A stretch of 64,000 nt of DNA from contig JBAYIQ010000004.1 in NCBI GenBank assembly GCA_041665545.1, forward strand, positions 18,132 through 82,131, given 5' to 3'. This document shows positions 12,542-51,121 of the stretch, piece after piece. The notes beneath the pieces were generated by a model, which was not told the origin of the DNA, made no database searches, and saw nothing but the letters and a program-made list of their open reading frames with translations. Both the position numbers and the translations under genes were made by a program. How positions within the stretch are numbered: the first letter of the stretch is position 1; every line of letters starts with the position of its first letter. Source of the stretch: Patescibacteria group bacterium (GTDB lineage Bacteria > Patescibacteriota > Patescibacteriia > UBA1558 > GWA2-36-10).

Positions 12542-12682
12542 TTAGAGACTTATTTTCTTTCGGCCCCTGGCTTTTCGTCTTTTCAAGACTTTTCGACCAT
12601 CTTTGGTGGCCATGCGCTTCATAAAGCCGTGCTTTCTGGCTCTTTTTCTTTTTTTTGGTTGGTATGTCCTTTTTGTTGCCAT
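12542..12682 (-). CDS. rpmH: 50S ribosomal protein L34
   Basis: A 46 aa ORF missed by the 60 aa track cutoff: [46 protein letters not shown], near-consensus L34. It is immediately upstream of rnpA. Confidence 0.85.
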
Positions 12683-12841
12683 ATAAAATTAAATTACCTA
12701 AATAAAATAACATATTTACTTAATTTAATCAAGGGGAGTCACCAACTTGATTATACCCACATTTTATTAACAATTTATGCACTCTCGGTCTTATTTGAGC
12801 ATTTAAAAATATGTGGTATATTTACTGCAGTTTGTAAAAAC

Positions 12842-14212: not shown

Positions 14213-14445
14213 ACTGTTGACTAGTTGGTGGGCGCTTGTGTAAATCTCCTGGAAAATAATTTTTTTTAAAAGACAAGATTAAAATCGCGACTTTCTGCAC
14301 AGAGTTATCAGGTGGTCGTGCACAAGACAAATAGATAAATAAACACAAAATCACTGAACAAATACTTTATACAGCTCAAACTTATCAACATATGCACCGC
14401 GCCTACTACGGCTATATAATATATATATAAATTAATAATAAGTAT

Positions 14446-30087: not shown

Positions 30088-30765
30088 ATGTCAAACTTTG
30101 AACGCAAAGAACTTCGGCGCACACACACCATGGCTGACAAGCTAAAAAATTTGCGGCTAAACAAGGAAATCACCGTAGAAGCTTTAGCCAAAAAAATAAA
30201 CATTCCGACTAAATATATTGTCAGTTTGGAAAATGGTCAGCACGATAATTTGCCGGGAGATATTTATGTGCGCGCTTGGCTAAAAAAAATAGCTAGTTTT
30301 TATGAAGTTGATGCTAATGGTTTGCTAGTGGACTATCATTTAGAAAAAAAGATAAATCACAAGATCAACAAAGACATAAAAACAGAAAACAAGAAGGCGG
30401 TCAAAAGCAGTCGATTTTTAAGGCCAAGAACTTTGCGTTGGTTAGTAGTCGGAGGAGTAGTTTTATCTTTGTTAGTCTATTTGGCTTTTGAAATAGTTAA
30501 TATTATTTTTCCACCATATTTAAACATCACTCAACCCAGTAACAATTTCAGAACCAAAGAAGCCAGCGTAGAAATAATCGGTCAAACAAAAAAAGAGGCC
30601 CAATTAATGATCAATGGAGAGTTGATAGCCCTAGATCAAGAAGGAAAGTTCAAAAAAGCGGTTAATTTGACGATTGGCTTGAATAATTTACAGATTAGTG
30701 CTAAAAAGAAGCATAGTCGAACCAAATATTTAGAATTATTAATTTTAAGAGAATCATTAGAATAA
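30088..30765 (+). CDS. rodZ: RodZ-like cytoskeleton-associated protein (N-terminal XRE-type HTH, single TM)
   Basis: LRLNKEITVEALAKKINIPTKYIVSLENGQHDNLPGDIYVRAWLKKIASFYEVDANGLL matches the RodZ HTH_25 region. The TM segment is LRWLVVGGVVLSLLVYLAFEI. Confidence 0.6.
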   Translation: MSNFERKELRRTHTMADKLKNLRLNKEITVEALAKKINIPTKYIVSLENGQHDNLPGDIYVRAWLKKIASFYEVDANGLLVDYHLEKKINHKINKDIKTENKKAVKSSRFLRPRTLRWLVVGGVVLSLLVYLAFEIVNIIFPPYLNITQPSNNFRTKEASVEIIGQTKKEAQLMINGELIALDQEGKFKKAVNLTIGLNNLQISAKKKHSRTKYLELLILRESLE

Positions 30766-31935: not shown

Positions 31936-33357
31936 ATGTCTGTAATGAGTAAAATATTTACCAATACTATTTGGCAGATAGTAATAAGGTTTTTTGATGT
32001 TATTGTTGGGGTTGTAAACATCGGCATAATTACCCGTGTTTTGGGTCAAACACAATTTGGATTTTATACCACAATTTTTGTGTTCTTGCAGACAGTAATG
32101 ACCATAGGCGATTTTGGCCTGTATTTGACCCTATTGAACGAAGTGTCGGCTACTCAAGACAAAAAAGAGGAGAAAAAAAGGATTGATAATATTTTTACCA
32201 TTCGCTTGGTTTCATCGCTGATAATTTTTGCTCTAGCGCCACTGTTGATAAAATTTTTCCCCTACGATCAAGCAGTAAAGGTCGGGGTTATTTTTTTGGC
32301 CGGCGCATTTTTTTGGCAAAGCTTGGTTTCTACTTTGACAGCGGTGTTTGCCAAATATTTGGACATGGCCAAGGCAACGCTAGTTTATCTGATTGCAAGA
32401 TTGGTTTATTTGTGGCCCCTCATATATATTTATCAACACAGCGGTACCTTAAATCAAGTACTTTTTTGGAATACACTTAGCACCGCCGTTGGTTTTTTTG
32501 CTTTATTGATTTTTATACAAAAGCACCAGCGCTTAGGGATGGGCTGGAATTTTGCCTATTGGAAAAAAGTTTTTAAAATTGCTTGGCCATTGTCTTTGGG
32601 TGTAGTACTTAATCTGGTTTATTTCAAGGCCGACACTCTTATTTTGTCGGCCTATCATTCAGCGGAAAAAGTCGGTCTCTATGGCGCGGCCTACAAAGTA
32701 TTGGAGGTTTTGGTGACCTTCCCACACATGTTTATGGGTTTGATTTTACCCCTTTTTGTAGCCTCTTGGGTGAAAAAAGATTTTGAAAAGTTGAGAGTAA
32801 TTCAACAGAGTACTTTTAACTTTTTTTCTATCATCAATATTTGGATGATTTTGATTGTTTGGTTGATGAGCAGAAAAATAATGTTGTTAATCACTGGACC
32901 AGAGTTTGTCCAGTCAGCGCCGATTCTAAATATTTTGGTTTTGGCTGTGGTGGCCATATTTTTTGGCACCATGTTCACCTACTTAGTCGTGGCCATGGGT
33001 TTGCAGAAAAAAATGCTTAAATTTTATTTTTTGACAGCTGTTTTTGGTCTGACCGCTTATTTTTTATTTATTCCCGAATATGGCTATTGGGCCGCGGCTA
33101 TTATTACGGTGCTAGCCGAAGTTTTTGTTTGGGTAGCCGCTTACTTTTTGGTCAAAAAAAGTGCCAATTTTAGCTTAAAAACAGGAATTATGTGGCGTTC
33201 TGTGCTGGCGGCGATATTAAGTTTTGTTTTGTTTTGGCCACTGCGTGGTTGGCCAGTTATATTTTTGGGACTTGGCGTTTCAGTCTTTTATTTCTTGATG
33301 CTTTTTGTTTTGCGGGCCATCAAAAAAGATGAGCTAAAAATTATATTAAATAAGTAA
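31936..33357 (+). CDS. Polysaccharide-biosynthesis or flippase family membrane protein (Wzx/MurJ-like MOP superfamily)
   Basis: A 473 aa polytopic protein (about 12-14 TM). The N-terminus (IWQIVIRFFDVIVGVVNIGIITRVLGQTQFGFY) and overall pattern are typical of Wzx-type oligosaccharide flippases. Confidence 0.5.
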   Translation: MSVMSKIFTNTIWQIVIRFFDVIVGVVNIGIITRVLGQTQFGFYTTIFVFLQTVMTIGDFGLYLTLLNEVSATQDKKEEKKRIDNIFTIRLVSSLIIFALAPLLIKFFPYDQAVKVGVIFLAGAFFWQSLVSTLTAVFAKYLDMAKATLVYLIARLVYLWPLIYIYQHSGTLNQVLFWNTLSTAVGFFALLIFIQKHQRLGMGWNFAYWKKVFKIAWPLSLGVVLNLVYFKADTLILSAYHSAEKVGLYGAAYKVLEVLVTFPHMFMGLILPLFVASWVKKDFEKLRVIQQSTFNFFSIINIWMILIVWLMSRKIMLLITGPEFVQSAPILNILVLAVVAIFFGTMFTYLVVAMGLQKKMLKFYFLTAVFGLTAYFLFIPEYGYWAAAIITVLAEVFVWVAAYFLVKKSANFSLKTGIMWRSVLAAILSFVLFWPLRGWPVIFLGLGVSVFYFLMLFVLRAIKKDELKIILNK

Positions 33358-33358
33358 A

Positions 33359-34648
33359 ATGTTGAATTTATTTTTTATTTTAATCGCTGGATTTATCTTC
33401 GCTTACGTCGCTAAAAAAAATATTTTGTGGGGCCTGTCATTAATTATTATTTTTTTGCCAAGTTATCTTTGGCGTTTCCAGATATTGTCCTTGCCCTCAA
33501 CTTTTTTAGAGCTGATGATTTTGATATTATTTTTTATTTGGCTGATTTATTCTAAGCCCTATAAAAAAGAATTTTGGTTGGCACAAAAAATAGAAAAAAA
33601 ATGGTTTTATTTATCAATACTTTGGCTAATAGTTAGCTTTGTAGCTTGGCTGTATAATCCAACCATAAAATCTTTGGGTCTTTGGCGCGCTTATTTCTTG
33701 GAGCCGTTGTTATTTTTTGCGGTGCTTATCACCAGCTTGAAAAATGCCAAAGATTACCAGATAATAATAAAATCAACAGCCATTTTAATTTTCTGGTTGG
33801 CTATTTTTGCTATCATCCAAAATTTTACCGGCGCTAATTTACCAGCAGCCTTCGATTTCCCGAAAACCAAGAGATTAACCAGTGTCTTTTTGTATCCCAA
33901 CTCTTTGAGCCTGTTGACGGCCGGTATTAGCGGATTTTTGGTGGCCTATTATATTTATGTTCAGCGGAGGTGGGAATATTTAGCTATTGGGATCTTAGGA
34001 ATTTTTTTATCTTGGTGGGCAGTGAGCCAAGGGGCTCTAATGGCAATATTTTTCGCTTTTATTTTATTTGGGGCAGTGAAATTATATAAAAGATTAAAAA
34101 ATAAAAAACAAAAATATTTATTTTTTTTAATAATCATTTCTTTGCTGTTAATATTTTTTAATAGTCGCTTATGGACTGATGTTAATCAACAGCTTTTTCA
34201 TCCAACTCTTGATTTGCAGGCTACTTCATTAGAAATACGCAGTAGCCAGTGGCAAGAAACTTATGTTTTGCTTAAAGACAATTGGTTTAAGGGCGCAGGA
34301 CTCAATGCTTATCAAATCAAATTTATACCGTATCACAAAATAGCTTGGTTAGAAATATTTTTATATCCACATGATATATTTTTAAATTTTTGGGTTGAGT
34401 TGGGACTCCTTGGCTTGTTGACTTTTTTACTTATTTTGTATTTTATTGGTCAGGAAATAAAAAAATTGTTTTTTGAAAAAAATAATTTAGCTTGGCCACT
34501 GCTTATTTTCTGGCTTATCTGGCTGATTCAGGGTTTAGTAGATGCACCTTATTTTAAAAACGATTTGAGTTTATTGTTTTTTATATTTTTGGCTCTGACC
34601 ACGCAAGCTAGAAACATAAAAACAATTTACAAGGAAGCTGAATTTTAG
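33359..34648 (+). CDS. O-antigen ligase / O-oligosaccharyltransferase family (Wzy_C, WaaL/PglL-like) membrane protein
   Basis: A polytopic protein with a periplasmic-loop region resembling the Wzy_C domain (AYYIYVQRRWEYLAIGILGIFLSWWAVSQGALMAIFFAFILFGA). It is translationally coupled to the upstream flippase gene. Confidence 0.45.
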   Translation: MLNLFFILIAGFIFAYVAKKNILWGLSLIIIFLPSYLWRFQILSLPSTFLELMILILFFIWLIYSKPYKKEFWLAQKIEKKWFYLSILWLIVSFVAWLYNPTIKSLGLWRAYFLEPLLFFAVLITSLKNAKDYQIIIKSTAILIFWLAIFAIIQNFTGANLPAAFDFPKTKRLTSVFLYPNSLSLLTAGISGFLVAYYIYVQRRWEYLAIGILGIFLSWWAVSQGALMAIFFAFILFGAVKLYKRLKNKKQKYLFFLIIISLLLIFFNSRLWTDVNQQLFHPTLDLQATSLEIRSSQWQETYVLLKDNWFKGAGLNAYQIKFIPYHKIAWLEIFLYPHDIFLNFWVELGLLGLLTFLLILYFIGQEIKKLFFEKNNLAWPLLIFWLIWLIQGLVDAPYFKNDLSLLFFIFLALTTQARNIKTIYKEAEF

Positions 34649-34665
34649 TATAATATACACATGTA

Positions 34666-34745
34666 CCCCGTTAGAAATTCACGGGGATTAAATAATTGCC
34701 AAGCAAGTAGTATATTAGCTTATTATAATGATGATTTCTAACGGG
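34666..34745. repeat. Inverted-repeat element of the CCCGTTAGAAATT family (copy E2), ending at the galU start
   Basis: CCCCGTTAGAAATT at 34666-34679 is itself a local hairpin (CCCCG-TTAGAAATTCA-CGGGG). Its partner ATTTCTAACGGG at 34734-34745 is followed immediately by GTGAAAAAGAT. The 25-mer ATTTCTAACGGG[G/A]TGAAAAAGAT is nearly identical to the one at 46615-46639. Confidence 0.5.
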
Positions 34746-35612
34746 GTGAAAAAGATTAGGAAGGCAGTAATTCCGGTGGCGGGATTTGGCACTAGATTTT
34801 TACCAGCCACCAAGGCTCAGCCCAAGGAAATGTTGACCGTGGTTGACAAGCCGATCATCCAATATATTGTGGAAGAAGCCGTGCAATCGGGCATTGAAGA
34901 GATAATTTTTGTTACTTCAGCTAATAAACGCGCTATTGAAGATCACTTTGATCGCAATTTCGAGCTAGAATACCGCTTGCGACAAAAAGGGAAAAAAACC
35001 GAGCTGGCCGAGATGCTGAAAATTTCGGACATGGCCAAATTTATTTATGTCCGCCAAAAAACACCAAAGGGCTTGGGGCATGCCGTACTGACTGCTCGAG
35101 AGCTGATCGGCGATGAGCCGTTTGTGGTGATTGCTGGTGATGACATTATTGACTCTAAGGTGCCGGCCATAAAACAACTAATGCGGGTTTATGAAAGGTA
35201 TGAAGATATAGTTTTGGGCGTCACCAAAGTAGATAAAAAAGAAACTTACAAATACGGCATTATTGATCCTATAAAAATTGACGAGCGCACAGTCGAGATA
35301 AGAAGGCTGGTCGAAAAACCCGCTTCCAACAAAGCGCCTTCTAACTTGGCAGTCACTGGTCGCTATATATTGACCCCAGAAATATTTGATTTTTTAGCCA
35401 AACAAAAGCCCGGTGCTGGTGGTGAAATACAATTGACTGACGCCATTGCCCGCTATATCAAAGAACGGGCTGGCTACGCCTGTCTTTATGAGGGAGATTA
35501 TTATGACTGTGGTAACAAACTAGAGTTTATGAAGGCCATTATAAATTTTGGTCTAAAAAGATCGGCCTTTAAGAAAGAGTTAAAAAAATATTTACGTCAA
35601 ATAGTAAATTAA
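34728..35612 (+). CDS. galU: UTP--glucose-1-phosphate uridylyltransferase
   Basis: KAVIPVAGFGTRFLPATKAQPKEMLTVVDKPIIQYIVEEA is the GalU N-terminal signature. An alternative in-frame GTG start at 34746 directly follows the repeat element. Confidence 0.85.
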   Translation: MMISNGVKKIRKAVIPVAGFGTRFLPATKAQPKEMLTVVDKPIIQYIVEEAVQSGIEEIIFVTSANKRAIEDHFDRNFELEYRLRQKGKKTELAEMLKISDMAKFIYVRQKTPKGLGHAVLTARELIGDEPFVVIAGDDIIDSKVPAIKQLMRVYERYEDIVLGVTKVDKKETYKYGIIDPIKIDERTVEIRRLVEKPASNKAPSNLAVTGRYILTPEIFDFLAKQKPGAGGEIQLTDAIARYIKERAGYACLYEGDYYDCGNKLEFMKAIINFGLKRSAFKKELKKYLRQIVN

Positions 35613-35613
35613 T

Positions 35614-36978
35614 ATGCGTGGCTACAAAATAATTACATTATTATTAATCGGGGTGTTTGTCATTACCTCTGGTTTTGGTTGCAAGGGTTTGGGCTGTTCT
35701 ACAGATAGCGCTAGTCAGCCCGTAGCCCTTACTTACTGGGGAGTTTGGGACAGTCCCACGCAAGTTTCTGGTTTGATTCAAGAATATCAGTCCAGTCACC
35801 CGACCGTAAAAGTCATCTACAAACAACTTCGCTATGAAGAGTACGAAAGAAAACTATTGGAAGCCTGGGCTGATGATAGAGGGCCAGATATTTTTGCCAT
35901 TCCAGCCAGCTGGCTCAATAAATATCAAAACCGCATCGTGCCCATGCCCAGTGTTGTCCAAATTCCAGTGCAGGAAATAAAAGGCACATTAAAAAAAGAA
36001 ACAGTCGTGACCGTACAAACAGTAAAAGGGCTTAAGGCCGATGAGGTTAAGGACCAATACGTTGATGTGGTCTACAACAACGTTGTTAAGAACAACCAAA
36101 TATATGCCCTACCCTATTCGCTAGACACGCTAGTCACTTTTTACAATGAAGATTTACTTGATCAGGCCAGCTTGCCAGAAAAAATTGTTACCTTCAATGA
36201 TCTAGTGGATCAGACTAGCCAGCTGACCAAAGTGACTACGGACAACAAAATAGTTCAATCAGGCGTGGCCTTGGGTACGGCTGACAACATACCAAGATTT
36301 TTTGACATAGTTTCTAGTTTGATGCTTCAAACCGAGGTCAATCTGAAAGGGACAAAATTTAATCCAAGTAGTGGAGAGCAATCAGCTGCTCGTTTTCAGG
36401 AGGCCATAAATTTTTATATTAGTTTTGCTCGTCCGGGCTTGGCTTCGTATTCTTGGGACAAAAGTCTGCCCAATGCTTTTGATATGTTTAGCTCTGGTAA
36501 ATTAGCTTATTTTTTTGGCTATAGCTATCACGCGGATGCTTTGCGTAAAGCGGGCGTGCCATTTGAGTGGGGTATTACCAATTTCCCACAAACCGAAGGG
36601 TCGCAAGGCACAAAATACTACGCTGATTACTGGGTCAATGTTGTAGCCAAAAAATCCAAGAATCAAGGCGTGGCTTGGAACTTTGTGCAAAATACAGCCA
36701 GCGCCCAAAATGTCAAAAAATATTTGGATCAAAATAAAAAACCAACTGCCTTGCGCTCTTTGATTACTGGTCAAAAAAATGATCCTGACATTGCCCCTTT
36801 TGCCAATCAGGTTTTGACAGCCGACAACTGGTACACTGGCTATGATTACCCCAAAGCCGAGGCGTACATGGCCGAGTTTATCAATGGACTAGCTGACAAC
36901 AAGATTGACATCAACAACCAAGCTGATTTGAAATTATTTATTGATAGAATAAATCAAACCTATCAACCCAATCAATGA
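35614..36978 (+). CDS. Secreted or lipoprotein-like protein resembling family 1 extracellular solute-binding proteins
   Basis: Signal peptide with Cys residues (ITSGFGCKGLGCS). LTYWGVWDSP...YEEYERKLLEAWADDRGPDIFAIPASW is typical of ABC sugar-binding proteins, but no permease or ATPase genes are adjacent. The stop overlaps the next ATG (ATGA). Confidence 0.45.
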   Translation: MRGYKIITLLLIGVFVITSGFGCKGLGCSTDSASQPVALTYWGVWDSPTQVSGLIQEYQSSHPTVKVIYKQLRYEEYERKLLEAWADDRGPDIFAIPASWLNKYQNRIVPMPSVVQIPVQEIKGTLKKETVVTVQTVKGLKADEVKDQYVDVVYNNVVKNNQIYALPYSLDTLVTFYNEDLLDQASLPEKIVTFNDLVDQTSQLTKVTTDNKIVQSGVALGTADNIPRFFDIVSSLMLQTEVNLKGTKFNPSSGEQSAARFQEAINFYISFARPGLASYSWDKSLPNAFDMFSSGKLAYFFGYSYHADALRKAGVPFEWGITNFPQTEGSQGTKYYADYWVNVVAKKSKNQGVAWNFVQNTASAQNVKKYLDQNKKPTALRSLITGQKNDPDIAPFANQVLTADNWYTGYDYPKAEAYMAEFINGLADNKIDINNQADLKLFIDRINQTYQPNQ

Positions 36979-37667
36979 AATACTTTAAAATAATAATTTT
37001 AGTAGCCGTTACTTTGCCCTTGCTAGCTTTTGCCCAAACAACACCACCAGGGTTTTTGGACACCTTGGGGGGAGATTGTATGAAAAACGGCGACTGTCAA
37101 CTAGCCGACGTAGCCACTGGTTTTATTTTGTTGACCAAGTTACTGCTCGGGGCTATGGGAGCCGTGGCTTTGCTGTATTTTGTAATTGGTGGCTTCCAGT
37201 GGATGACTTCCCAAGGCAACCAGGAAAGAGTGCGTAAGGGCCAGCAGACCATGACCAACACTGTTATTGCTTTGTGTATTGCCTTTACTAGTTATTTACT
37301 ATTGAACTTTTTTGTTAATGATATTTTGGGAGTAAAAAGTGATTACATGATTGGCGATGCTCCAACTCAGTGTGAAGGTAAGTCAGATGGGACGGCTTGT
37401 AATGTGGTTGCTGGTAGCACATATATAAACCCCTATGAATGTTTTTCGGGAGAGTGCGTCACTAAGTGTAAAGTAAAAGCCAACATGACCAGTTTGAATT
37501 GGCAGTGCTATACTGTGCCAAATCCAGAATTAATATCAACAGACACTACTTATTATGAAAGAAATTTGTGCCCCGGTGATGAATACACTGTTTGCACCTT
37601 GTTAAATGCCAGTGGAGAACCAGCTGATCCAGCTTATCAAGCGTTCCTACATCGTTTTGTTCCTTGA
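36975..37667 (+). CDS. TrbC/VirB2-like T4SS-pilin-family paralog 1, with Cys-rich C-terminal extension
   Basis: Signal peptide, then the conserved core GAMGAVALLYFVIGGFQWMTSQGNQERVRKGQQTMTNTVIALCIAFTSYLLLNFF (two TM helices around a GGFxWxTSxGN loop). A roughly 110 aa tail carries 10 Cys (QCEGKSDGTACN...ECFSGECVTKCK...WQCY...NLCPGDEYTVCTLL). Confidence 0.55.
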   Translation: MKYFKIIILVAVTLPLLAFAQTTPPGFLDTLGGDCMKNGDCQLADVATGFILLTKLLLGAMGAVALLYFVIGGFQWMTSQGNQERVRKGQQTMTNTVIALCIAFTSYLLLNFFVNDILGVKSDYMIGDAPTQCEGKSDGTACNVVAGSTYINPYECFSGECVTKCKVKANMTSLNWQCYTVPNPELISTDTTYYERNLCPGDEYTVCTLLNASGEPADPAYQAFLHRFVP

Positions 37668-37785
37668 TTATAAAATTATGCACATTCACTCCGTTAAATA
37701 AAATTTAAACACAGTTTAAATTTTAAATTTGCTACATGACCACATATAAATTATACGCCAATGAAAAATATAAAAAATAAATCTG

Positions 37786-37866
37786 TCATTGCGAGTCCCG
37801 TCGAGCTGAGCTCGACGGGATGTGGCAATCCCGATGAGATTGCTTCGCTCCGCTCGCAATGACAAT
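37786..37866. mobile_element. MITE-like palindromic element, family B
   Basis: An 81 bp element with perfect 12 bp terminal inverted repeats TGTCATTGCGAG / CTCGCAATGACA. It contains an 11 bp-stem hairpin TCCCGTCGAGC-TGA-GCTCGACGGGA. A related fragment (CCCCGTCGCG-TCAGA-CGCGACGGGG followed by CTCGCAATGAC) is at 7551-7583. It lies 10 bp upstream of the pilin paralog 2 start. Confidence 0.5.
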
Positions 37867-37875
37867 CATAAATAT

Positions 37876-38205
37876 ATGAAAAAAATAATAAATTTATTTT
37901 GGTTAGCCACTCTTCCTCTATCTGCTTGGTCGGCAACAGACGGGAAAATTGAGCTTGAAAACCCCGTATCAGCAGATAGTGTGCCAGAACTTATCAATAC
38001 TGTAATTAAAGCAATTTTAGGCATAGTCGGCGCCGTAGCTTTGTTGTATTTGGTGTTGGGTGGTTTCACTTGGCTGACTTCCCAAGGCAATCCGGAAAAA
38101 GTAAAAAAAGGCCGAGAGACATTGGTTTGGGCGATCTTTGGTCTAGCTATGATTTTCTTTAGCTACGTGATATTGAATTATGTCTTTACCGAATTTTTAA
38201 AATAA
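37876..38205 (+). CDS. TrbC/VirB2-like T4SS-pilin-family paralog 2
   Basis: ORF track 37822..38205; the true start is MKKIINLF, because the upstream part is the MITE. Signal peptide LATLPLSAWSA, then the core ILGIVGAVALLYLVLGGFTWLTSQGNPEKVKKGRETLVWAIFGLAMIFFSYVILNYVF. Confidence 0.55.
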   Translation: MKKIINLFWLATLPLSAWSATDGKIELENPVSADSVPELINTVIKAILGIVGAVALLYLVLGGFTWLTSQGNPEKVKKGRETLVWAIFGLAMIFFSYVILNYVFTEFLK

Positions 38206-38223
38206 ATATAATTTTTTTGGTTC

Positions 38224-38252
38224 TTGATGTTTTGTGGTTTTTAGACTATAAT
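38224..38252 (+). promoter_or_regulatory. Putative promoter for pilin paralog 3 (TTGATG-17-TATAAT)
   Basis: TTGATGTTTTGTGGTTTTTAGACTATAAT lies about 65 nt upstream of a strong Shine-Dalgarno (AGGGGGTGA) and the ATG at 38317. Confidence 0.4.
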
Positions 38253-38316
38253 ATTATTAGTAAAAAGTACCTTGTTATTAATTATTAAAATCCTAAAAAT
38301 GAAAGGGGGTGAAGAA

Positions 38317-38682
38317 ATGAAAAAATTATTAGTTTCATTAATGCTTTTAGCGCCATCAATGGCCATGGCTCAAGCTCCTGTTGTGGAAGATGACCCATTT
38401 GGTCGAAACACCTTACAAGAGCTTTCAACAGCTGGTGAAAGTAAAGATATATTTGTGGTTATTTCAAACATTGTTAATATTATCTTGACTTTCTTAGGCG
38501 CTATTGCTGTGTTGTTATTCCTTTATGGTGGATTCAAGTGGTTCACCTCTCAAGGTAATAGTGAGCAAATTGAAGCTGCCAAGAAAATCATGGGCGCTGC
38601 CGTTGTTGGCTTGGCCATTATTTTCGCTTCATACGCCGCCGCTCAATACATCTTCGATCAGTTGTCGAATCAACTTTTATAG
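38317..38682 (+). CDS. TrbC/VirB2-like T4SS-pilin-family paralog 3
   Basis: Start MKKLLVSLMLLAPSMAMAQA (signal peptide) after the Shine-Dalgarno. Core LTFLGAIAVLLFLYGGFKWFTSQGNSEQIEAAKKIMGAAVVGLAIIFASYAAAQYIF. Confidence 0.55.
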   Translation: MKKLLVSLMLLAPSMAMAQAPVVEDDPFGRNTLQELSTAGESKDIFVVISNIVNIILTFLGAIAVLLFLYGGFKWFTSQGNSEQIEAAKKIMGAAVVGLAIIFASYAAAQYIFDQLSNQLL

Positions 38683-38756
38683 TGGTATATTTGGATTCAA
38701 GACATATAGTCTAGACTATAGTAGGCAAGCTTTTTGCCTACTAAGGTGTGAATTAT

Positions 38757-39146
38757 ATGTATAAATATATTATTTCATTATTTCTATTGTTGCCCTTTAC
38801 TGTCCTAGCAGTGAATCCTTTGGATTCTTTGAATGAGGCAGCCGGAGGCACTGGCTTGGTGAGTAATAAAACTCCGATTCAGATTGTTACTAGCATCATC
38901 AACACCATCCTTTATTTTGTGGGGGCTATAGTTATTGTCCTGATGCTTTGGGCGGGCTTCAAGTGGATGACTTCAGCTGGCAACACTGAAGCCATCAAAA
39001 AATCTAGAGAAACTATTATCAATGCCGTGATTGGCTTGGTAATTATTTTTGCGTCTTATGTGATAGTCAATTTTGTGATGTTAAGACTTATTGAGGGTAT
39101 TGGTGTTGGTGGCACTGGAGGTTCTCCGGCGACAGTTGCTGATTAA
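38757..39146 (+). CDS. TrbC/VirB2-like T4SS-pilin-family paralog 4, Gly/Thr/Ser/Pro-rich C-terminal tail
   Basis: ORF track 38748 (GTG); the ATG at 38757 has the better Shine-Dalgarno (AAGGTG). Signal peptide ISLFLLLPFTVLA. Core LYFVGAIVIVLMLWAGFKWMTSAGNTEAIKKSRETIINAVIGLVIIFASYVIVNFV. Tail GIGVGGTGGSPATVAD. Confidence 0.55.
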   Translation: MYKYIISLFLLLPFTVLAVNPLDSLNEAAGGTGLVSNKTPIQIVTSIINTILYFVGAIVIVLMLWAGFKWMTSAGNTEAIKKSRETIINAVIGLVIIFASYVIVNFVMLRLIEGIGVGGTGGSPATVAD

Positions 39147-39169: not shown

Positions 39170-39215
39170 AATAAAGCGGCTCCAGTCCATTGCGACTAGA
39201 GCCGTTTTTTCGATG
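39170..39215. terminator. Bidirectional terminator between pilin paralog 4 (+) and the 39230 lipoprotein (-)
   Basis: CGGCTCCAGTCCATTGCGACTAGAGCCG hairpin with an A/T-run on the upstream side and GTTTTTTCG on the downstream side. Confidence 0.5.
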
Positions 39216-39229
39216 AGGTGTGTGTTTTT

Positions 39230-39913
39230 TTATAGCCTGATACAGCCACCCCTGTCCAGCAGCATACCCTGATTGTTGTTGGGGATAAAGTCATTGATCA
39301 AGAAGACAGCGTCAACTGACCGACCCTGCCACGGCACCTTGTGTCCGGGCGCAAGATTTCGACAGCCACGGATGACTCGTCCTCTGTCTTCCCAAACCAG
39401 TACGAAGTCGCCAGCTGCGATGAAGATGATTTTCTCTTCGTGGGGACGAAGAGTAAACACCGGCCCTTGTATGTTTTGGAAGGTTTTGGTCTGAGAGCTG
39501 ATGTTTTTTACCACTACCTCTAGCCGCGCCCAGCCTTGCACGAGGAATTCATCAACGATAATTGGCTCGCCAGTGTACAGACCGACTACGTGGTTTTCTT
39601 CCCCGTGTAGCACCTGGTCATTTCCTACCCATGGAGCCGTCCAGATTTCGTAACGTATGTATTTTTGTGCTCTCGTTTCTACAGGGAAGTCCCTTCCGTA
39701 GGGGAGTGGGATCTTGGGTCCACCGTTGACTGACACAACGGCCCAGCCAATGTAGTGCCGTTGGAAGGTCAATGTGACGGTGGGTGGGTTATCGCCGTAG
39801 GGATGATCGAGAGCGCGACCCTGTTCGTCGCGGAACTCGGTGCCGAGGCCCAAGCAGCCACAAAGGGGCAACAGGGCCATCAGGCACAGGGAGATAAGCA
39901 CATAGCGACGCAT
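39230..39913 (-). CDS. High-GC lipoprotein, unknown function
   Basis: ORF track 39230..39925 (GTG); the ATG at 39913 (MRRYVLISLCLMALLPLCGC lipobox-like) is preceded by Shine-Dalgarno GTGAGGTG. GC is about 53%. It has its own exact TTGACA-17-TATAAT promoter. I recognise no domain. Confidence 0.5.
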   Translation of the reverse strand: MRRYVLISLCLMALLPLCGCLGLGTEFRDEQGRALDHPYGDNPPTVTLTFQRHYIGWAVVSVNGGPKIPLPYGRDFPVETRAQKYIRYEIWTAPWVGNDQVLHGEENHVVGLYTGEPIIVDEFLVQGWARLEVVVKNISSQTKTFQNIQGPVFTLRPHEEKIIFIAAGDFVLVWEDRGRVIRGCRNLAPGHKVPWQGRSVDAVFLINDFIPNNNQGMLLDRGGCIRL

Positions 39914-39976
39914 ATAGCACCTCACTTGTTGAATGTTCTTTTTTTAGGCCCAAAATAGGGCTTTTACTAACACTAT

Positions 39977-41954: not shown

Positions 41955-43556
41955 CTAGTAAGTTATTTTATAAATTAGAAAATATTTATCTTCATAAGAC
42001 AGGGAAATATTCCGGTCTTTTTTTATATTGGCAATCAGGTTTTCGTGTCGATTTTTTTCCACGAAAATATAGCTACTCTTGAAATTACTTTTAATTTCCC
42101 AAGCCAAGTTGTCTTTTAGGTCACCCCTGGCGATATCAATGTATTTTTTTTGTAAATCAGGATGCGAAAAATACATAAAAGAAAAGTCTAAACCAACAAT
42201 GTAATAATTGTGGTCGTTATAATAAAAAAGCATTGGCCACTCATCCCAATCTTCGTGAAAGACTATACTATTTTTGGGGGTATTATTTTTTAACCAATTA
42301 GCGCTTGGCTGATAGCGATCAATTGGGAGATCTTTAGGCGTTTTGGTATCCAAGATTTTTTTGTAAATATTTGGTTGCGCAAGAATACAAAAAATAGCTA
42401 AATAAATTAGCAAGAAAGTTTTTTGCCACCTCAGTAGAGATTTGAAATACTTAGTAATTGTTTTAAGGCCAATTTTTTTTATAATATCGGTCCAAGCGCT
42501 GGCTGTAAAAATTAATAAAAAAGGCAGATAATATTCAATAAAACGATATGATTTTATGGTCAATAACAAAAATAAAAAACTTAGTAAAAAACTGAACCAG
42601 CTCAAATGGCTTATTTTTTTGTAGTTGAAAAACAAAATTATTATAGCAATTACCCCTAGGATAAAAAAATAGTCTCCCGCAGAGATTACTTGCGGAATTG
42701 AGCGACCATACCACTCACCGCCAACGGAAAAAAGATAGCCATAGTTGATGACGCCAATTAGAAAAAATTGCTCGTAATAAAACTTTAAATTGTGGGGGAA
42801 ATAGGGGTTGATTATTACTCCTGCTAATAAACCACCCACCAAGAATAGCAAGGTTTTTTTATCAGCAATGAATTTATTTTTATCATCCCAAGATATGAGC
42901 AGGCGTTGGTGAAAAAGCTTGATTTTTTTGTGGTGTATAAAATCATAAATAGCCGTAGCCAGCAAAAAAATAAGGCCTATTAACATGGCGATTGGCCAGC
43001 CACCATATAGCCAGACAAAAAGAAAACACAGAATGAAAATTAGCCAGCGTTTTTTGTAATATAAGGCATAAATTAAAAAACAGACAAATATTAAAGACAA
43101 GCTATTTACCTTGATTAAGGTCAGGCGAAAAGTAAGGTCAGGCAAGCTGATGAGTAAAAAAGTCCACAGCCATGGCCAGATAATACTTAGCTTTTTAAAC
43201 AGCCAGTAGAAAGTGAGTCCCATTAAAGCGGCAAAAAATATTGTGGCCACCTTGACTCCGATTAGCGGTGATTGGATATAAGTAAAAGGCACTAATAATA
43301 AGTGATAAAGCAGGTGATGGTCAGTAAAGTGCTCAGTAATTGAGCTGTATTGCATCCACGGCAAGCTTTTGAGTAATATACCGTGTCTTAGGAAATCAGC
43401 CACCTTGGCGTGGTAAAAGCCGTCAGGATCGCCTATATAGCCACCCCACTGCAAACAAGCATAATAAAACGCTAAAACCAAAAAAATCAGCCAATAATCT
43501 AATTTGAGCTGGAAGAATATTTTTTTAAATTTTAGCCATTTTTCTTCAGCTGTCAT
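41955..43556 (-). CDS. Large polytopic membrane protein, GT-C-like (PMT/ArnT-type) candidate glycosyltransferase
   Basis: A 533 aa protein. The first extracytoplasmic loop carries a GDPDGFYHAKVA acidic motif reminiscent of the GT-C DxD/DE...Y motif. It has many TM helices and a C-terminal soluble domain. Confidence 0.35.
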   Translation of the reverse strand: MTAEEKWLKFKKIFFQLKLDYWLIFLVLAFYYACLQWGGYIGDPDGFYHAKVADFLRHGILLKSLPWMQYSSITEHFTDHHLLYHLLLVPFTYIQSPLIGVKVATIFFAALMGLTFYWLFKKLSIIWPWLWTFLLISLPDLTFRLTLIKVNSLSLIFVCFLIYALYYKKRWLIFILCFLFVWLYGGWPIAMLIGLIFLLATAIYDFIHHKKIKLFHQRLLISWDDKNKFIADKKTLLFLVGGLLAGVIINPYFPHNLKFYYEQFFLIGVINYGYLFSVGGEWYGRSIPQVISAGDYFFILGVIAIIILFFNYKKISHLSWFSFLLSFLFLLLTIKSYRFIEYYLPFLLIFTASAWTDIIKKIGLKTITKYFKSLLRWQKTFLLIYLAIFCILAQPNIYKKILDTKTPKDLPIDRYQPSANWLKNNTPKNSIVFHEDWDEWPMLFYYNDHNYYIVGLDFSFMYFSHPDLQKKYIDIARGDLKDNLAWEIKSNFKSSYIFVEKNRHENLIANIKKDRNISLSYEDKYFLIYKITY

Positions 43557-45076: not shown

Positions 45077-46555
45077 ATGAAAAAATTAAAAATAGTTTCA
45101 ATTTCAGCCGAGGTCCATCCCTATTCCAAGACCGGTGGTTTGGGTGATGTAGCTAGATCACTGCCCAAGGCCTTTCATCGTTTGGGGCACGAGGTTATTA
45201 TTATCACTCCGTTTTATGCTAAGGTCATAGATCAGGGAAAGTTTAAGATTGAAAAAATTTTTAGCGATGTCAAATTAAGTATTGATGCCGAAAATGAAGA
45301 ATCGGTCAGCTACTATCGCACCGAATTATTGTCCGGATTGAAAGTATATCTTATTGGTAATGAAAAATATTTTTCTCGTCACAAAAAATTATATGGTTCG
45401 GAGCACGAAAATGCCCGTTTTTATCTTTTTGACATAGCGGCTCTCAAGTTGATATCGTTGTTAAAATTTAAAGCGGACATTATTCATTGTCACGACTGGC
45501 ACTCAGGACTAGTGCCCTATTTGAAACAAAATCGTTTCAAAAAAAGCGAAACACTGTCTAAGGCGGCCACGGTTTATACTATTCATAATTTAGTATTTCA
45601 GCTGGGGCACAATTGGTGGGAAGTGCCAGAGAAATATAAGGACAAAGGAGTCAAATCTTTGCCACTATTTGATGATAAAAAAATTGAGTATATCAATTTT
45701 GCTAAGCGGGGCATTCTCAATGCCGATGTTATCAACACGGTTTCCGAAACTTACGCCGAAGAAATATTGCGACCAAGTTTTGGACAGGATTTACATCGTA
45801 TTTTGAGGAACAGAAAAGAAAATTTATTTGGCATCGTCAATGGTATTGATTACAAGGATTATAATCCCATCAACGATCCTAATTTGGTGCTGAATTATGA
45901 TCACAAAAAAATTCAACGAAAAAAAGTGAACAAAGAGCACATCCAAAAATTATTTAATCTTAAAGTTGATCAAGATGCGCCAGTGTTGTGCACCACTTCG
46001 CGAGTCACTTACCAGAAGGGTTTTGAATTAATATTGAATACCATCAATAATATCATGGATATGGGTGCTCAGCTGATTGTCATCGGCGCTGGTGATAAAA
46101 GCTACATCAATGAATTCATGAAGCTGGCCAAAAAGTATCCCAAACAATTGGCAGTCATACCCTCACACAAGGAAAACCAAAAATATGAGACTTTAGTTTA
46201 TGCTGGCTCAGATATGTTTTTATTGCCTTCACACCATGAGCCCTGTGGCATCAACCAGCTTATTAGTTTTCGTTATGGTTGCGTACCCATTGTCAGGCAA
46301 ACTGGTGGCTTGAATGACACGGTAGAAAATTTTGAACCAAACAATGAAGCCAGTAATGGTTTTACTTTCAAAAATTACGATCAAAAAGAATTTTTGATTG
46401 CCTTGACTAGGGCCTTGGAAACCTACAAACATAAGAAGGTCTGGCGCGACTTGGCTTGTCGTGGCATGAAGGCCTCCTATTCCTGGGAAATACCAGCCAA
46501 AGAATATTTAGAACTTTATCAGCACGCCATTAAGATAAAAAATGATTCCCGTTAG
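45077..46555 (+). CDS. glgA: Glycogen/starch synthase (GT5), paralog 1
   Basis: KIVSISAEVHPYSKTGGLGDVARSLPKAFHRLGHEVIIITPFY is the GlgA N-terminal ADP-glucose-binding signature, with the C-terminal GT-B domain. Confidence 0.8.
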   Translation: MKKLKIVSISAEVHPYSKTGGLGDVARSLPKAFHRLGHEVIIITPFYAKVIDQGKFKIEKIFSDVKLSIDAENEESVSYYRTELLSGLKVYLIGNEKYFSRHKKLYGSEHENARFYLFDIAALKLISLLKFKADIIHCHDWHSGLVPYLKQNRFKKSETLSKAATVYTIHNLVFQLGHNWWEVPEKYKDKGVKSLPLFDDKKIEYINFAKRGILNADVINTVSETYAEEILRPSFGQDLHRILRNRKENLFGIVNGIDYKDYNPINDPNLVLNYDHKKIQRKKVNKEHIQKLFNLKVDQDAPVLCTTSRVTYQKGFELILNTINNIMDMGAQLIVIGAGDKSYINEFMKLAKKYPKQLAVIPSHKENQKYETLVYAGSDMFLLPSHHEPCGINQLISFRYGCVPIVRQTGGLNDTVENFEPNNEASNGFTFKNYDQKEFLIALTRALETYKHKKVWRDLACRGMKASYSWEIPAKEYLELYQHAIKIKNDSR

Positions 46556-46626
46556 AAATTTTCGATATCTAGCGGGTAGATAGGCATATTTTTTAATGAA
46601 TAAATTTTACGATAATTTCTAACGGG
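46548..46626. repeat. Inverted-repeat element of the CCCGTTAGAAATT family (copy E3), ending at the ATG of the GH57-like gene
   Basis: CCCGTTAGAAATT at 46548-46560 overlaps the last codons and stop of glgA. Its partner AATTTCTAACGGG at 46614-46626 is followed directly by the ATG at 46627. Confidence 0.5.
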
Positions 46627-47778
46627 ATGAAAAAGATAACTTGGGTTAATTTTTTACACATCTACCAGCCACCATGGCAGACAGTCGGAGTGGTACAGCA
46701 GATAGCTAGTCAGAGCTACGAGTACTTGGTTTATCTTTTTAAAAAATATTCAAAATATCGAGCCACTATAAATATTAGTGGGTGTTTGCTGGACATGCTT
46801 TTCGAAATTCGACCAGACTTGGTCAAAGAATTGCAAAAATTGGTGAGTAATAAACAAATTGAATTAACAGCCACAGCTAAATTTCATCCGCTTTTGCCAC
46901 TGCTTGAGCAAGAAGAAGTAATTAGGCAAATACAATTGAACGCCGAGACCTTAAAAAAGTTTTTTCCCAATTTGAAGCCAAGTGGTTTTTATTTGCCGGA
47001 AATGGCTTACAGCTTAGGGGTGGCAAAGATTATTAAACAATTAGGTTATAAATGGATAATATTAGACCCAATATGCGCTAATGAAAAAATTGATAATAAT
47101 ACACATTACAGTATTAAAAATATTGGGTTGACAGTTGTTTTTCGCGATAGAATAATATCAAAAAAATATCCAGCTGAAGAAATTTATAATAAACTAGAGA
47201 AACTAACAGCCAATGAAACAATAATTACAGCTACTGATGGTGAAATATACGGTCATCACCATGAAGATTGGCAAGGACATATTGAAAAAGTGATTTCTCA
47301 TAAAGATTTGGAAAGCAAAACAGTGTCTCAATATATACTTGGGTTAGTCAAGAAAAAAACCATTGCCTTGCGCTCCGGAACTTGGGAGTCGACCTTACAG
47401 GAGATAAAAGCTGATAAGCCATTTGTCATGTGGGCGGATCCGCATAATAAAATTCAGCAAGATTTGTGGGCCTTAGTTAATTTGGCCAGTAAATTGCTAA
47501 AAAAATACAAAAAAGATCCAAATTTTCAATGGGCCAGAATGCACCTTGATCAGGGTTTGATTTCTTGTACTTTTTGGTGGGCTTCGGCTCGTAAACCATC
47601 AGACTTTTCACCGCTGACTTGGCATCCGGACATGATTGACAATGGCGTGGAAGAGTTGGTGCGTAGTGTGCGCTCTTTACAACGAGCAACAACTAAAGAA
47701 AAAATGCAGGCCGAGAAGTTATATCTAGAAGTTAAAAAAAATACCTGGATGACTCATTGGAAAAAATATAGCAAATAA
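46627..47778 (+). CDS. Glycoside hydrolase family 57-like alpha-glucan-active enzyme
   Basis: N-terminal FLHIYQPPWQ (GH57 H-x-HQP region), TATAKFHPLLPLL (region II-like), and EMAYS. The size is 383 aa. Confidence 0.5.
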   Translation: MKKITWVNFLHIYQPPWQTVGVVQQIASQSYEYLVYLFKKYSKYRATINISGCLLDMLFEIRPDLVKELQKLVSNKQIELTATAKFHPLLPLLEQEEVIRQIQLNAETLKKFFPNLKPSGFYLPEMAYSLGVAKIIKQLGYKWIILDPICANEKIDNNTHYSIKNIGLTVVFRDRIISKKYPAEEIYNKLEKLTANETIITATDGEIYGHHHEDWQGHIEKVISHKDLESKTVSQYILGLVKKKTIALRSGTWESTLQEIKADKPFVMWADPHNKIQQDLWALVNLASKLLKKYKKDPNFQWARMHLDQGLISCTFWWASARKPSDFSPLTWHPDMIDNGVEELVRSVRSLQRATTKEKMQAEKLYLEVKKNTWMTHWKKYSK

Positions 47779-47785
47779 TATTTAT

Positions 47786-47889
47786 CCCGTTGCAAATTCA
47801 CTACACAATGTAACGGGCAAAAATAGGAATTAGAAATAATTGTTTTACCTTTATTTTTTTAAACATTTTATCAAATAATTTGCAACGGG
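47786..47889. repeat. Inverted-repeat element of the CCCGTTAGAAATT family (copy E4), with compensatory G/C variants
   Basis: CCCGTTGCAAATT at 47786-47798 pairs with AATTTGCAACGGG at 47877-47889, both carrying the same two-base variant. An internal hairpin CCCGTT-20 nt-AACGGG is present. An ATG follows at 47890, opening a 21-codon ORF. Confidence 0.5.
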
Positions 47890-47895
47890 ATGGAT

Positions 47896-48044
47896 CCAGT
47901 TAGAAATTCACGATATTTAGCCATTGTGGTAAGGTGTAGTGGTATAAGATAAATTTACATTACCACATAAGAGACAAGCTAATGCTTAGAAACAATTATT
48001 TTACTTTAATTTTTTAAATATTTTATTAGATAATTTGTAACTGG
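47896..48044. repeat. Inverted-repeat element of the CCCGTTAGAAATT family (copy E5), ending at the ATG of the kinase-like gene
   Basis: CCAGTTAGAAATT at 47896-47908 pairs with AATTTGTAACTGG at 48032-48044, with a compensatory CCAG/CTGG change. It is followed directly by the ATG at 48045. Confidence 0.5.
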
Positions 48045-49106
48045 ATGGAAATCACAAGCATCAAACGATACATGGACAAATTGCTGAACTTGGATTTTAT
48101 TACTACTTTGTTTAATCAAGGTCTTAATAAATTTTATCCAGATTTCAAGCAAGTGGATGGTCTGGTTTTTCACCCCTACAAGCGCCATGTTGGCAAAACC
48201 AGCATGATAATGGTGGTGGAATATGTCTTGAGTTATTTAACAATTGATGAAAAAATAAAAACAATCAGTCTATTTTCTTCAGCGCACTCGGACGGCTCTA
48301 GAACTAGGTCTTTTTATGGTCAAAGTTATTTATATGATCACGGTTTTGGTCAAGGCAATTTCTTAGTTGGTCGACCCCTGTTTTATCTTGATGAGCAGTT
48401 TGCCTTTTTTTATGAAGCAGTGCTGGGTCGTACTTTTCGTAAAGTTATGCAGGAAAAACCAAATGAAGATTTTTCCGTTATTTTGGATTTGGCAGCTAAG
48501 TGGATAAAAAAAATGCACGATTGTCCCATTGATAAAGAAAATAAATTTGTCTCTTTTGATTTCAGTGAAATGTCGCCCAAGCCACAAAGATTTTTGGATG
48601 ATATGACCAAAGTTTATCCAGAATTAGGTCAGCGTCTGGACAGCACCTTTCATCGTTTAGCTGATTTGAAGAAAAAAAATTTCAATACCTTTCCGGTGTC
48701 GATTATACACGGCGATTATCATCCAGAAAATATTATTGTAAAGAGCGCGGAGCCAGATAAAATAAAAGTTATTGACTTTACTGATTTATCTTTGGGTGAT
48801 CCTATGGTGGACTTGGGGTCATTCATCCAGCAGATAGATTTTATGGGCTTTGAGTGTTTGAGTAGAGGTAATATAAATAAGTATAAAACTATTTTTTTGG
48901 AATATTATTTTAATAAAAAATTTGAGGACATTGATATTAACGATTTAAACAGAATAAATTTGTATCAAGCTTGGGTAGTTTTGCGCACTACTTTGTTGCT
49001 TTTTTATGCTAAGTCAGCCAGTCACCCGCTTGGCGAGTTGATTGAAGAGATAGATCGCTACTTGAGCTTGGCGGAGGGCAGTCAAAGAAAAATAAACTTG
49101 TATTAA
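48045..49106 (+). CDS. Protein-kinase-like (APH/maltokinase-type) phosphotransferase
   Basis: Catalytic loop IIHGDYHPENIIV (HGDxHxxN) and activation motif VIDFTDLSLGDPMVDLG (DFxxxxxGDPxxDL), as in aminoglycoside phosphotransferase and maltokinase-fold enzymes. Confidence 0.5.
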   Translation: MEITSIKRYMDKLLNLDFITTLFNQGLNKFYPDFKQVDGLVFHPYKRHVGKTSMIMVVEYVLSYLTIDEKIKTISLFSSAHSDGSRTRSFYGQSYLYDHGFGQGNFLVGRPLFYLDEQFAFFYEAVLGRTFRKVMQEKPNEDFSVILDLAAKWIKKMHDCPIDKENKFVSFDFSEMSPKPQRFLDDMTKVYPELGQRLDSTFHRLADLKKKNFNTFPVSIIHGDYHPENIIVKSAEPDKIKVIDFTDLSLGDPMVDLGSFIQQIDFMGFECLSRGNINKYKTIFLEYYFNKKFEDIDINDLNRINLYQAWVVLRTTLLLFYAKSASHPLGELIEEIDRYLSLAEGSQRKINLY

Positions 49107-49115
49107 TTTTTAGCT

Positions 49116-50612: not shown

Positions 50613-50624
50613 CCGGATACAAAT

Positions 50625-51113
50625 ATGGATCAAAATTTGATTGTTGTAAATGAAAATAACGAAGTTGTTAAAATAGTTGATTCAGTTGAAGTACATCATA
50701 GCAATTTATTACATCGCTCAGTACACGTTATTGTTGTTGGCAAAGGAGAAAAATTTTTTTGTCGGCAAATTAGTTCCACCAGTTCCCTTTATGCAAATTA
50801 TTGGTCAACGGCCACAGGTGCTCATATATTGGCTAATCATGAGCCACTTGAGACAGCGCAGTATTCTTTAAAAGATTTATTGGGCATATCTATGGATTTA
50901 GAATTTATTGGAGATGTACGCATTAACGATGGTGTTGAAAATGAAATAAGTTCAACATACGTGGGTTATTACGATGGGATATTTAATTTAAATAAGAGTA
51001 AGTTGACCGACGGCAAATTTTTTACCGATGAAGAATTAAGTATTCTTTTTGAGTCAGAAAAAGTTACACCACACTTAGTTAAATCAATTGAATTATATAG
51101 AAAAATTAAATAA
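50625..51113 (+). CDS. NUDIX-fold protein (IPP-isomerase-like), Nudix box degenerate
   Basis: LHRSVHVIVVGKGEKFFCRQIS...YANYWSTATGAHILANHEPLETAQYSLKDLLGI matches the Nudix-fold topology. The catalytic REx2EE positions are not conserved. Confidence 0.4.
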   Translation: MDQNLIVVNENNEVVKIVDSVEVHHSNLLHRSVHVIVVGKGEKFFCRQISSTSSLYANYWSTATGAHILANHEPLETAQYSLKDLLGISMDLEFIGDVRINDGVENEISSTYVGYYDGIFNLNKSKLTDGKFFTDEELSILFESEKVTPHLVKSIELYRKIK

Positions 51114-51121
51114 ACAAAAAT

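Follow-up and report, generated by a model that had tools for sequence, protein, structure and literature searches.

The subject of this report is a cluster of pilin and envelope genes from a Patescibacteria group bacterium, carried on a 64-kb stretch of contig JBAYIQ010000004.1 that is called the window below and of which the 50 larger open reading frames (ORFs) were scanned against Pfam. At its centre is a tandem array of four VirB2-like pilin genes led by the gene of a solute-binding lipoprotein. A preliminary description of the window had placed nine genes here, and all nine were confirmed with the identities and positions given to them. The array and the enzyme genes that flank it are as follows.

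31936-33357, plus strand: Wzx/MOP-type polysaccharide flippase, 473 amino acids (aa); PF01943 75 bits, 8.4e-21; PF13440 2.7e-19
33359-34648, plus strand: Wzy_C-family membrane protein resembling ligases, polymerases and O-oligosaccharyltransferases, 429 aa; PF04932 55.6 bits, 6.8e-15 (gathering score 31.7)
34728-35612, plus strand: GalU, UTP-glucose-1-phosphate uridylyltransferase, 294 aa; TIGR01099 equivalog 378.3 bits (cut-off 326.8)
35614-36978, plus strand: orphan oligosaccharide-type solute-binding lipoprotein, 454 aa, with conserved Cys23; AlphaFold2 model, Foldseek, and profile search of the Protein Data Bank (PDB)
36975-37667, plus strand: pilin 1, 230 aa, a VirB2-like helical hairpin with a C-terminal knob of about 105 aa that is rich in cysteine; PF18895 35.5 bits
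37877-38205, plus strand: pilin 2, 109 aa from ATG 37877 (mechanical ORF start 37822); PF18895 58.1 bits, PF04956 28.7 bits
38317-38682, plus strand: pilin 3, 121 aa from ATG 38317, after AAAGGGGG (ORF start 38272); PF18895 33.1 bits
38757-39146, plus strand: pilin 4, 129 aa from ATG 38757 (ORF start 38748), C-terminal tail rich in Gly/Ser/Thr/Pro; PF18895 35.9 bits
40043-41950, plus strand: DUF2079 polytopic membrane protein, presumed GT-C-type glycosyltransferase, 635 aa; PF09852 203 bits, 1.5e-59
41955-43556, minus strand: polytopic membrane protein of 533 aa, distant relative of DUF2079; hhalign to DUF2079 88.6% probability, E 2.7e-6

The genes of GalU, the solute-binding lipoprotein and the knob-bearing pilin 1 form one tightly packed unit, followed by three more pilin genes and a terminator. 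A single nucleotide separates galU from the lipoprotein gene, and the lipoprotein stop codon overlaps the start codon of pilin 1 as ATGA at positions 36975-36978, the coupling that had already been read from the sequence.

The four small proteins had been described as VirB2/TrbC-type pilins. All four score above the PF18895 gathering score of 26.6 bits, so that the assignment was upheld by this model; PF04956, with a gathering score of 27.9 bits, was passed by pilin 2 alone, and pilin 4 fell below it at 26.3 bits. Sec-type signal peptides were read from the sequences of all four, with the cleavage motifs AFA, AWS, AMA and VLA. The possibility was considered that these are type IV pilins, and it was rejected because there is no prepilin leader. 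The likely true starts of pilins 2 to 4 are ATG 37877, 38317 and 38757, a revision based on the signal-peptide sequences and, for pilins 2 and 3, on agreement with the lengths of the orthologues. The mechanical start of pilin 2, GTG 37822, falls within a hairpin element that is described below. The paralogues within the window are 28-38% identical.

The AlphaFold2 model of pilin 1 has hairpin helices at residues 43-77 and 83-117 and a small alpha/beta knob at residues 154-210. Two cysteines precede the first helix and eight lie in the C-terminal domain, and these ten are invariant or nearly so among 47 sequences down to 26% identity. By the positive-inside rule, the knob is predicted to lie outside the cell. 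When the whole model was compared with the PDB by Foldseek, the top match was an archaeal conjugation pilin, which was not significant (E 1.2). When 1.84 billion representatives were searched with the knob alone, every convincing relative was a protein with the size and layout of pilin 1; the other matches, giant cysteine-rich repeat proteins, were set aside as compositional. The knob pilin is lineage-specific. The TTPP motif that had been noted at the start of mature pilin 1 is present after the predicted cleavage site (AFA-Q) and is kept in close relatives only.

The lipoprotein of the window has no Pfam match itself; its homologues carry PF01547/PF13416. The AlphaFold2 model (predicted local distance difference test score, pLDDT, 88.8; predicted template modelling score 0.84) has a two-lobe solute-binding fold, and Foldseek matched it in the PDB to oligosaccharide-binding proteins with E values of about 1e-23 and template modelling scores of 0.7-0.8. 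The best matches bind cycloalternan and sophoro-, cello- and malto-oligosaccharides, and the sequence profile searched against the PDB agrees (9e-23). Both G20 and C23, in the lipobox, are nearly invariant; the invariant positions of the protein include many Trp and Tyr residues. The 733 homologues detected carry organism-specific labels that are all Patescibacteria or Parcubacteria, the others being labelled with the generic 'bacterium'. No ATP-binding cassette (ABC) permease or ATPase family was found among the recurrent neighbours of the lipoprotein gene in 84 loci, apart from an unrelated MacB/FtsX upstream in a few. The lipoprotein is an orphan sugar-binding fold dedicated to the pilin operon. 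Residues 114-138 or thereabouts form a beta-hairpin in the model, in which E129 is invariant and K127 nearly so; this hairpin is skipped in most sequence alignments to solved binding proteins and may be a family-specific docking element.

Relatives were collected by scanning one genome per species. At least 577 were found, and the best 80 loci, at 95% to 37% identity, were fetched. Neighbouring genes were labelled with profile hidden Markov models built from the window proteins, and the unlabelled neighbours were clustered and then scanned with Pfam. The fetched loci are labelled as Komeili-, Falkow-, Uhr-, Magasanik-, Buchanan- and Nomurabacteria, and six relatives that are present in Table S1 of a survey of 3,035 Patescibacteria genomes (PMC12102498) all belong to GTDB class ABY1. 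Many loci (L005, L008, L016, L018 and others) come from GTDB records titled 'uncultured Gammaproteobacteria bacterium', titles that look wrong since the gene content and the relatives are those of Patescibacteria. A pilin directly follows the lipoprotein gene in all 76 species-level loci with at least 700 bp of downstream sequence. The distance from the lipoprotein stop to the start of pilin 1 is at most 12 nucleotides in 54 of 77 loci and at most 50 in 69 of 77, and the size of the array varies from 1 to 12 pilins. A second architecture, seen in about 22 loci, has the solute-binding gene, a pilin and rodZ, and then either the 533-aa gene with six or so pilins or recA with the Wzy_C gene. Because the lipoprotein and pilin 1 stay together in this second architecture while all else moves, the two genes are the invariant unit of the locus, and the solute-binding lipoprotein is the sole invariant partner of the pilins. 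The unlabelled neighbours are housekeeping and envelope genes (SMC, ComM, cytidylate kinase, PPDK, UvrA, GT2, sulfatase-type and PMT_2).

Pilins 1 to 3 fall into classes whose order is kept across genomes, their best matches lying respectively at array positions 1, 2 and 3 of other loci. Recent duplication or antigenic variation was considered as the origin of the four pilins and was rejected for classes 1 to 3 because order and orthology are conserved across genomes. Pilins 1 to 3 are old, non-redundant paralogues rather than recent variants. Pilin 4 ends in GIGVGGTGGSPATVAD, and the low-complexity pilin tails to which attention had been drawn earlier were borne out by the comparison: C-terminal tails rich in Gly/Ser/Thr/Pro were counted in 58 of 411 pilins and none of 431 neighbouring proteins, indicating a pilin-specific trait. 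Tailed pilins are present in 31 of 67 arrays, most often as the last pilin.

Among the flanking enzymes, the Wzy_C protein passed the PF04932 model that had been proposed for it. When a profile of 27 orthologues was compared with the PDB, it matched the ligase WaaL (7tpg, 3.1e-11) and an oligosaccharyltransferase (9rmk, 1.4e-9), which amounts to equal distance. R294 is invariant and H338 nearly invariant, and both align to the motifs of WaaL and the oligosaccharyltransferase; the conserved Arg and His of the Wzy_C domain are common to WaaL and Wzy as well. An attempt to assign the protein to PglL or WaaL by sequence gave no separation. The preliminary description had also placed two GT-C-like proteins after the cluster. 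Two large membrane proteins are indeed present and one of them is a DUF2079 protein, while the GT-C label of the 533-aa protein is only inferred, since its sole support is the hhalign match to DUF2079. Profile searches matched the 533-aa protein to no Pfam family or PDB sequence, and a profile search of PDB sequences gave no match for the DUF2079 protein. In the 533-aa protein, D44 and D78 are invariant and D42 and H79 nearly invariant, D42 and D44 being an acidic pair in the first loop.

Tandem arrays of VirB2-like pilins are already known from Patescibacteria as part of a monoderm-type type IV secretion system (T4SS). VirB2-like pilins were reported in 1,948 of the surveyed assemblies and near virB4 in 1,135, with 441 arrays of 2-11 genes each and about 25% mutual identity (PMC12102498). 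The VirB4/VirB6/PrgI cluster of Southlakia epibionticum contains six PF18895 pilins, which are essential (PMC10633639), and a 2025 review treats VirB2-like arrays as the T4SS pili of a monoderm. The survey makes no mention of a solute-binding protein, galU or DUF2079 (PMC12102498). As the preliminary description had stated, the window has no VirB4, VirB11 or VirD4 ATPase; no family match to these or to VirB6 was found among the scanned ORFs. The suggestion drawn from this, that the pilins do not belong to a classical T4SS, was not supported, since such arrays are published as a T4SS component of Patescibacteria (PMC12102498, PMC10633639) and VirB4 is encoded elsewhere in the genomes of four of the six published ABY1 relatives that carry the locus (survey Table S1). 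Because VirB4 lies elsewhere in the relatives, a window free of these ATPases is normal for the lineage and is no evidence against a T4SS. In GCA_000991205.1, the genome of locus L029, TrsD and VirB4 are coding sequences (CDS) 233-234, and a VirB2 tandem at CDS 464-466 is flagged as not near virB4 (Table S3); the identity of this tandem with the L029 array could not be confirmed. The virB4 loci of ABY1 sit with comF, recG and radA (PMC12102498), none of which turned up among the scanned window ORFs. Taken as a whole, the earlier reading of the window is partly supported.

The explanation that we favour, at a probability of roughly 0.55, is that the locus represents, in the ABY1 lineage, the VirB2-like pilin array of Patescibacteria, with pilins assembled by a T4SS and with the lipoprotein and the knob pilin as its recognition or gating part. 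The form is distinguished by the invariant, coupled oligosaccharide-binding lipoprotein, the lineage-specific knob pilin and the recurrent glycan-enzyme neighbours. From the family memberships, folds, synteny and translational coupling described above, together with VirB4 elsewhere in relatives, we infer the following scheme. The pilins would be exported by Sec and inserted in the membrane as helical hairpins, and a T4SS of the monoderm type (VirB4, TrsD, VirB6), whose genes lie elsewhere in the genome, would assemble them. Roles would differ between the conserved pilin classes, pilins 2 and 3 probably serving as shaft subunits, pilin 1 presenting its disulfide-rich knob outside the cell and pilin 4 bearing a flexible Gly/Ser/Thr/Pro tail. 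The lipoprotein, presumably made in step with pilin 1, would bind a glycan of the host or of the cell's own envelope, and with the knob pilin would act as the recognition or gating part of the apparatus rather than serve an ABC importer as its receptor. Production or attachment of an extracytoplasmic glycan, for which the pilins are only a possible acceptor, may fall to the enzymes on either side (GalU; Wzx with Wzy_C; DUF2079 together with its 533-aa relative).

Several points weigh against this explanation. In none of the 84 loci did clustering and Pfam reveal a gene for a T4SS ATPase or channel within 10 kb, and two of the six relatives, both drafts, are without a detected VirB4. What ties the locus to a T4SS is family membership, together with co-occurrence in four draft genomes. 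The lipid anchor places the binding protein at the membrane and not at the pilus tip, and an ABC permease could be encoded elsewhere in the genome. Furthermore, the confidence of the knob model is moderate (pLDDT 68.9), and the Foldseek search of the PDB gave no significant structural match for the knob.

An alternative is that the solute-binding protein is the ordinary receptor of a sugar ABC importer encoded elsewhere, sharing the pilin operon through co-regulation only and having no physical or functional connection with the pilins. The typical CUT1-type oligosaccharide-binding fold, the many invariant Trp and Tyr residues and the glycogen and galactose genes downstream in the window are all in keeping with such a role. 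However, the lipoprotein gene adjoins a pilin gene at every one of the 76 loci, with overlapping or nearly overlapping stop and start codons in very divergent genomes, the pair survives rearrangement, and no permease or ATPase family recurs near the solute-binding gene, so that this explanation is improbable. The preliminary description had taken another course, in which the Wzy_C protein is an O-oligosaccharyltransferase of the PglL/PilO type that places a Wzx-flipped glycan on the Ser/Thr-rich ends of the pilins in a filament independent of a T4SS. In its favour, the genes of Wzx and Wzy_C are 1 nucleotide apart just upstream of the pilin unit, the invariant Arg and nearly invariant His are kept, and the Gly/Ser/Thr/Pro tails are specific to pilins. 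Monoderms are expected to lack lipid A-core, the acceptor of WaaL, which should thus be absent because the organism is a monoderm. There is also a precedent in Pseudomonas, where PilO/TfpO glycosylates pilin at a C-terminal serine. However, searches with family models at E values up to 0.1 matched the Wzy_C protein to neither PglL_A nor any other PglL/PilO-type family, and the protein is equidistant from WaaL and 9rmk. The linkage is also loose: only 29 of 55 related loci have Wzx and Wzy_C in the 10 kb that precede the solute-binding gene, Wzy_C is absent upstream in the Komeilibacteria locus L004, and it follows recA in the second architecture. Wzy_C is linked to the pilins no more tightly than recA or rodZ, and it belongs to a looser neighbourhood of recA and envelope genes. 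With the TTPP of pilin 1 not kept beyond close relatives and VirB4 present in relatives, we regard this explanation as unlikely.

Glycosylation could instead be the work of the GT-C-like proteins (DUF2079, its 533-aa relative and PMT_2), with the pilins or the solute-binding protein as acceptor and a polyprenyl-phosphate sugar, derived from the UDP-glucose of GalU, as donor. In 24 of 38 arrays, among them those of relatives at 38-45% identity, one of these genes is found no more than 1.5 kb from the array end, and DUF2079 adjoins the array end in many related loci. The 533-aa gene is present in 34 of 84 loci and lies inside the pilin cluster in the second architecture, GT2 genes adjoin it in about 12 loci, and in 47 of 73 loci galU immediately precedes the solute-binding gene. 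The acidic pair in the first loop, with D44 invariant and D42 nearly so, is consistent with this role. The proteins would act in the manner of TfpW on Pseudomonas group IV pilins or of Pmt on actinobacterial lipoproteins. On the other side, the GT-C fold is only presumed for both the DUF2079 and the 533-aa protein, the latter has no Pfam or PDB match, 14 of the 38 arrays have no GT-C-like neighbour, and no GT2 was found among the window ORFs scanned. A wall glycopolymer is equally possible as the acceptor, and the explanation remains doubtful. The GT-C-like genes are nevertheless tighter neighbours of the arrays than Wzy_C and the better-linked candidates for glycosylation. Because both kinds of enzyme flank the array and tailed pilins are present, glycosylation of the pilins is a reasonable hypothesis, possible but unproven. 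To our knowledge, glycosylation of VirB2-type pilins has not been described; the GT-C-like and Wzy_C neighbours and the pilin-specific tails make it worth testing.

To return to the favoured explanation of an ABY1 form of the T4SS pilin array, a more specific version of it is offered tentatively. The orphan lipoprotein and the disulfide-knob pilin may be the glycan-recognition module of the ABY1 T4SS pilus, the other pilins perhaps being decorated by the GT-C and Wzy_C enzymes. If so, the module would be the adhesin that is reported as missing from Patescibacteria T4SSs, and it would give the first example of a solute-binding fold taken over as the dedicated partner of a T4SS pilus, somewhat in the manner of the archaeal bindosome. 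Patescibacteria rely on contact with host cells, and the T4SS is essential in the one species tested, with no adhesin or substrate known. A pair kept across at least 76 species-level genomes offers a candidate that can be tested, either for recognising the host or for controlling pilus assembly, in ABY1, a large uncultured class. Should co-regulation be all that unites the pair, the locus would be an ordinary neighbourhood of envelope and pilin genes.

The closest known systems are the array of S. epibionticum (SEML1_0014-0019) and the arrays of the survey (PMC12102498), which have in common with the window tandem divergent PF18895/VirB2-like pilins, Sec signal peptides and occurrence in a monoderm. 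The identity among the window paralogues (28-38%) may be set beside the published average of 25%, and a chromosomal position, here about 20 kb from dnaA, is counted among the likenesses. In Southlakia the array lies inside the VirB4/VirB6/PrgI cluster without a solute-binding protein, whereas the array of the window is at least 25 kb from any T4SS gene, is led by the translationally coupled oligosaccharide-binding lipoprotein and the knob pilin, and is flanked by GT-C-like genes. The T-pilus of Agrobacterium combines a two-helix hairpin major pilin (VirB2) with a specialised minor component and an associated lipoprotein (VirB5 and VirB7), and the locus has the same three elements. However, there is no homology to VirB5 or VirB7 here; the minor component is a VirB2-like pilin with a C-terminal knob, the lipoprotein is a 450-aa solute-binding fold, and there is no outer membrane. 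Known pilin glycosylation is carried out by Wzy_C-type enzymes (PglL of Neisseria and PilO/TfpO of Pseudomonas) or by a GT-C enzyme (TfpW of Pseudomonas), and the window resembles these systems in having Wzy_C-family and GT-C-like enzymes beside pilin genes and Ser/Thr-rich pilin ends. Those enzymes act on type IV pilins, whereas the window pilins are VirB2-type, the linkage is partial, and both membership in the PglL subfamily and glycosylation are putative. The bindosome (Bas system) of Sulfolobus functionally couples sugar-binding with pilin-like proteins at the cell surface (PMC3047682). The tie between a sugar-binding and a pilin-like protein in a cell without an outer membrane is the same, as an analogy only; the Sulfolobus binding proteins carry type IV prepilin leaders and are assembled by a type IV pilus-like ATPase, whereas a lipoprotein and VirB2-type pilins are found here.

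Further features of the locus are listed below.

34626-34654, plus strand: promoter-like site TTTACA-17-TATAAT upstream of galU, 11/12 in a consensus scan; a consensus match only
37784-37864, no strand: structured inverted-repeat element of 81 nucleotides (GTCATTGCGAG...CTCGCAATGAC) between pilin 1 and pilin 2
39177-39204, no strand: hairpin rich in G+C with a T-run behind it, downstream of pilin 4; resembles a terminator on both strands
39230-39925, minus strand: predicted lipoprotein, 231 aa, function unassigned, no Pfam family; between the pilin array and DUF2079

The inverted repeat folds as RNA with -47.5 kcal/mol (z -7.4) and matched no Rfam family. A related G+C-rich hairpin with the same end motif lies at about 7530-7585, and the element looks like a dispersed palindromic element. 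The 231-aa predicted lipoprotein is kept at the same position in 16 related loci, and its gene is preceded by a promoter-like site (40005-39977, minus strand; TTGACA-17-TATAAT) with 12 of 12 consensus matches. Its sole family match was to TraV and was not significant (E 0.06).

The window covers a core part of the chromosome of a bacterium with a small genome. Its genes run in the order rnpA, yidC, dnaA (12.6 kb), dnaN, ruvA, a FemAB-family gene, a Mur-ligase gene, rpoB, rpoC, ftsK, a RodZ-like gene and recA, and 3' of the locus are yebC, ruvC, glycogen genes, a class A penicillin-binding protein gene and uvrB. The FtsK at 27853 is a true FtsK with the 4TM, alpha and gamma domains. With dnaA and dnaN (12629-15552) about 20 kb before the pilin operon, the locus lies near the likely replication origin, and a near-origin position has been reported for T4SS genes in several Patescibacteria classes. 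The RodZ-like protein (30088-30765) has an HTH_25 domain and a Glucodextran_B-like domain, along with a membrane helix that was read from the sequence, and its neighbourhood is kept in relatives; its gene directly follows the pair of lipoprotein and pilin 1 in about 22 loci. Glycogen and galactose genes occupy 45077-52054 and comprise two GlgA-like synthases, a GH57 gene, an APH-like kinase and a GalT-like gene, a cluster that may be related to the sugar ligand of the lipoprotein.

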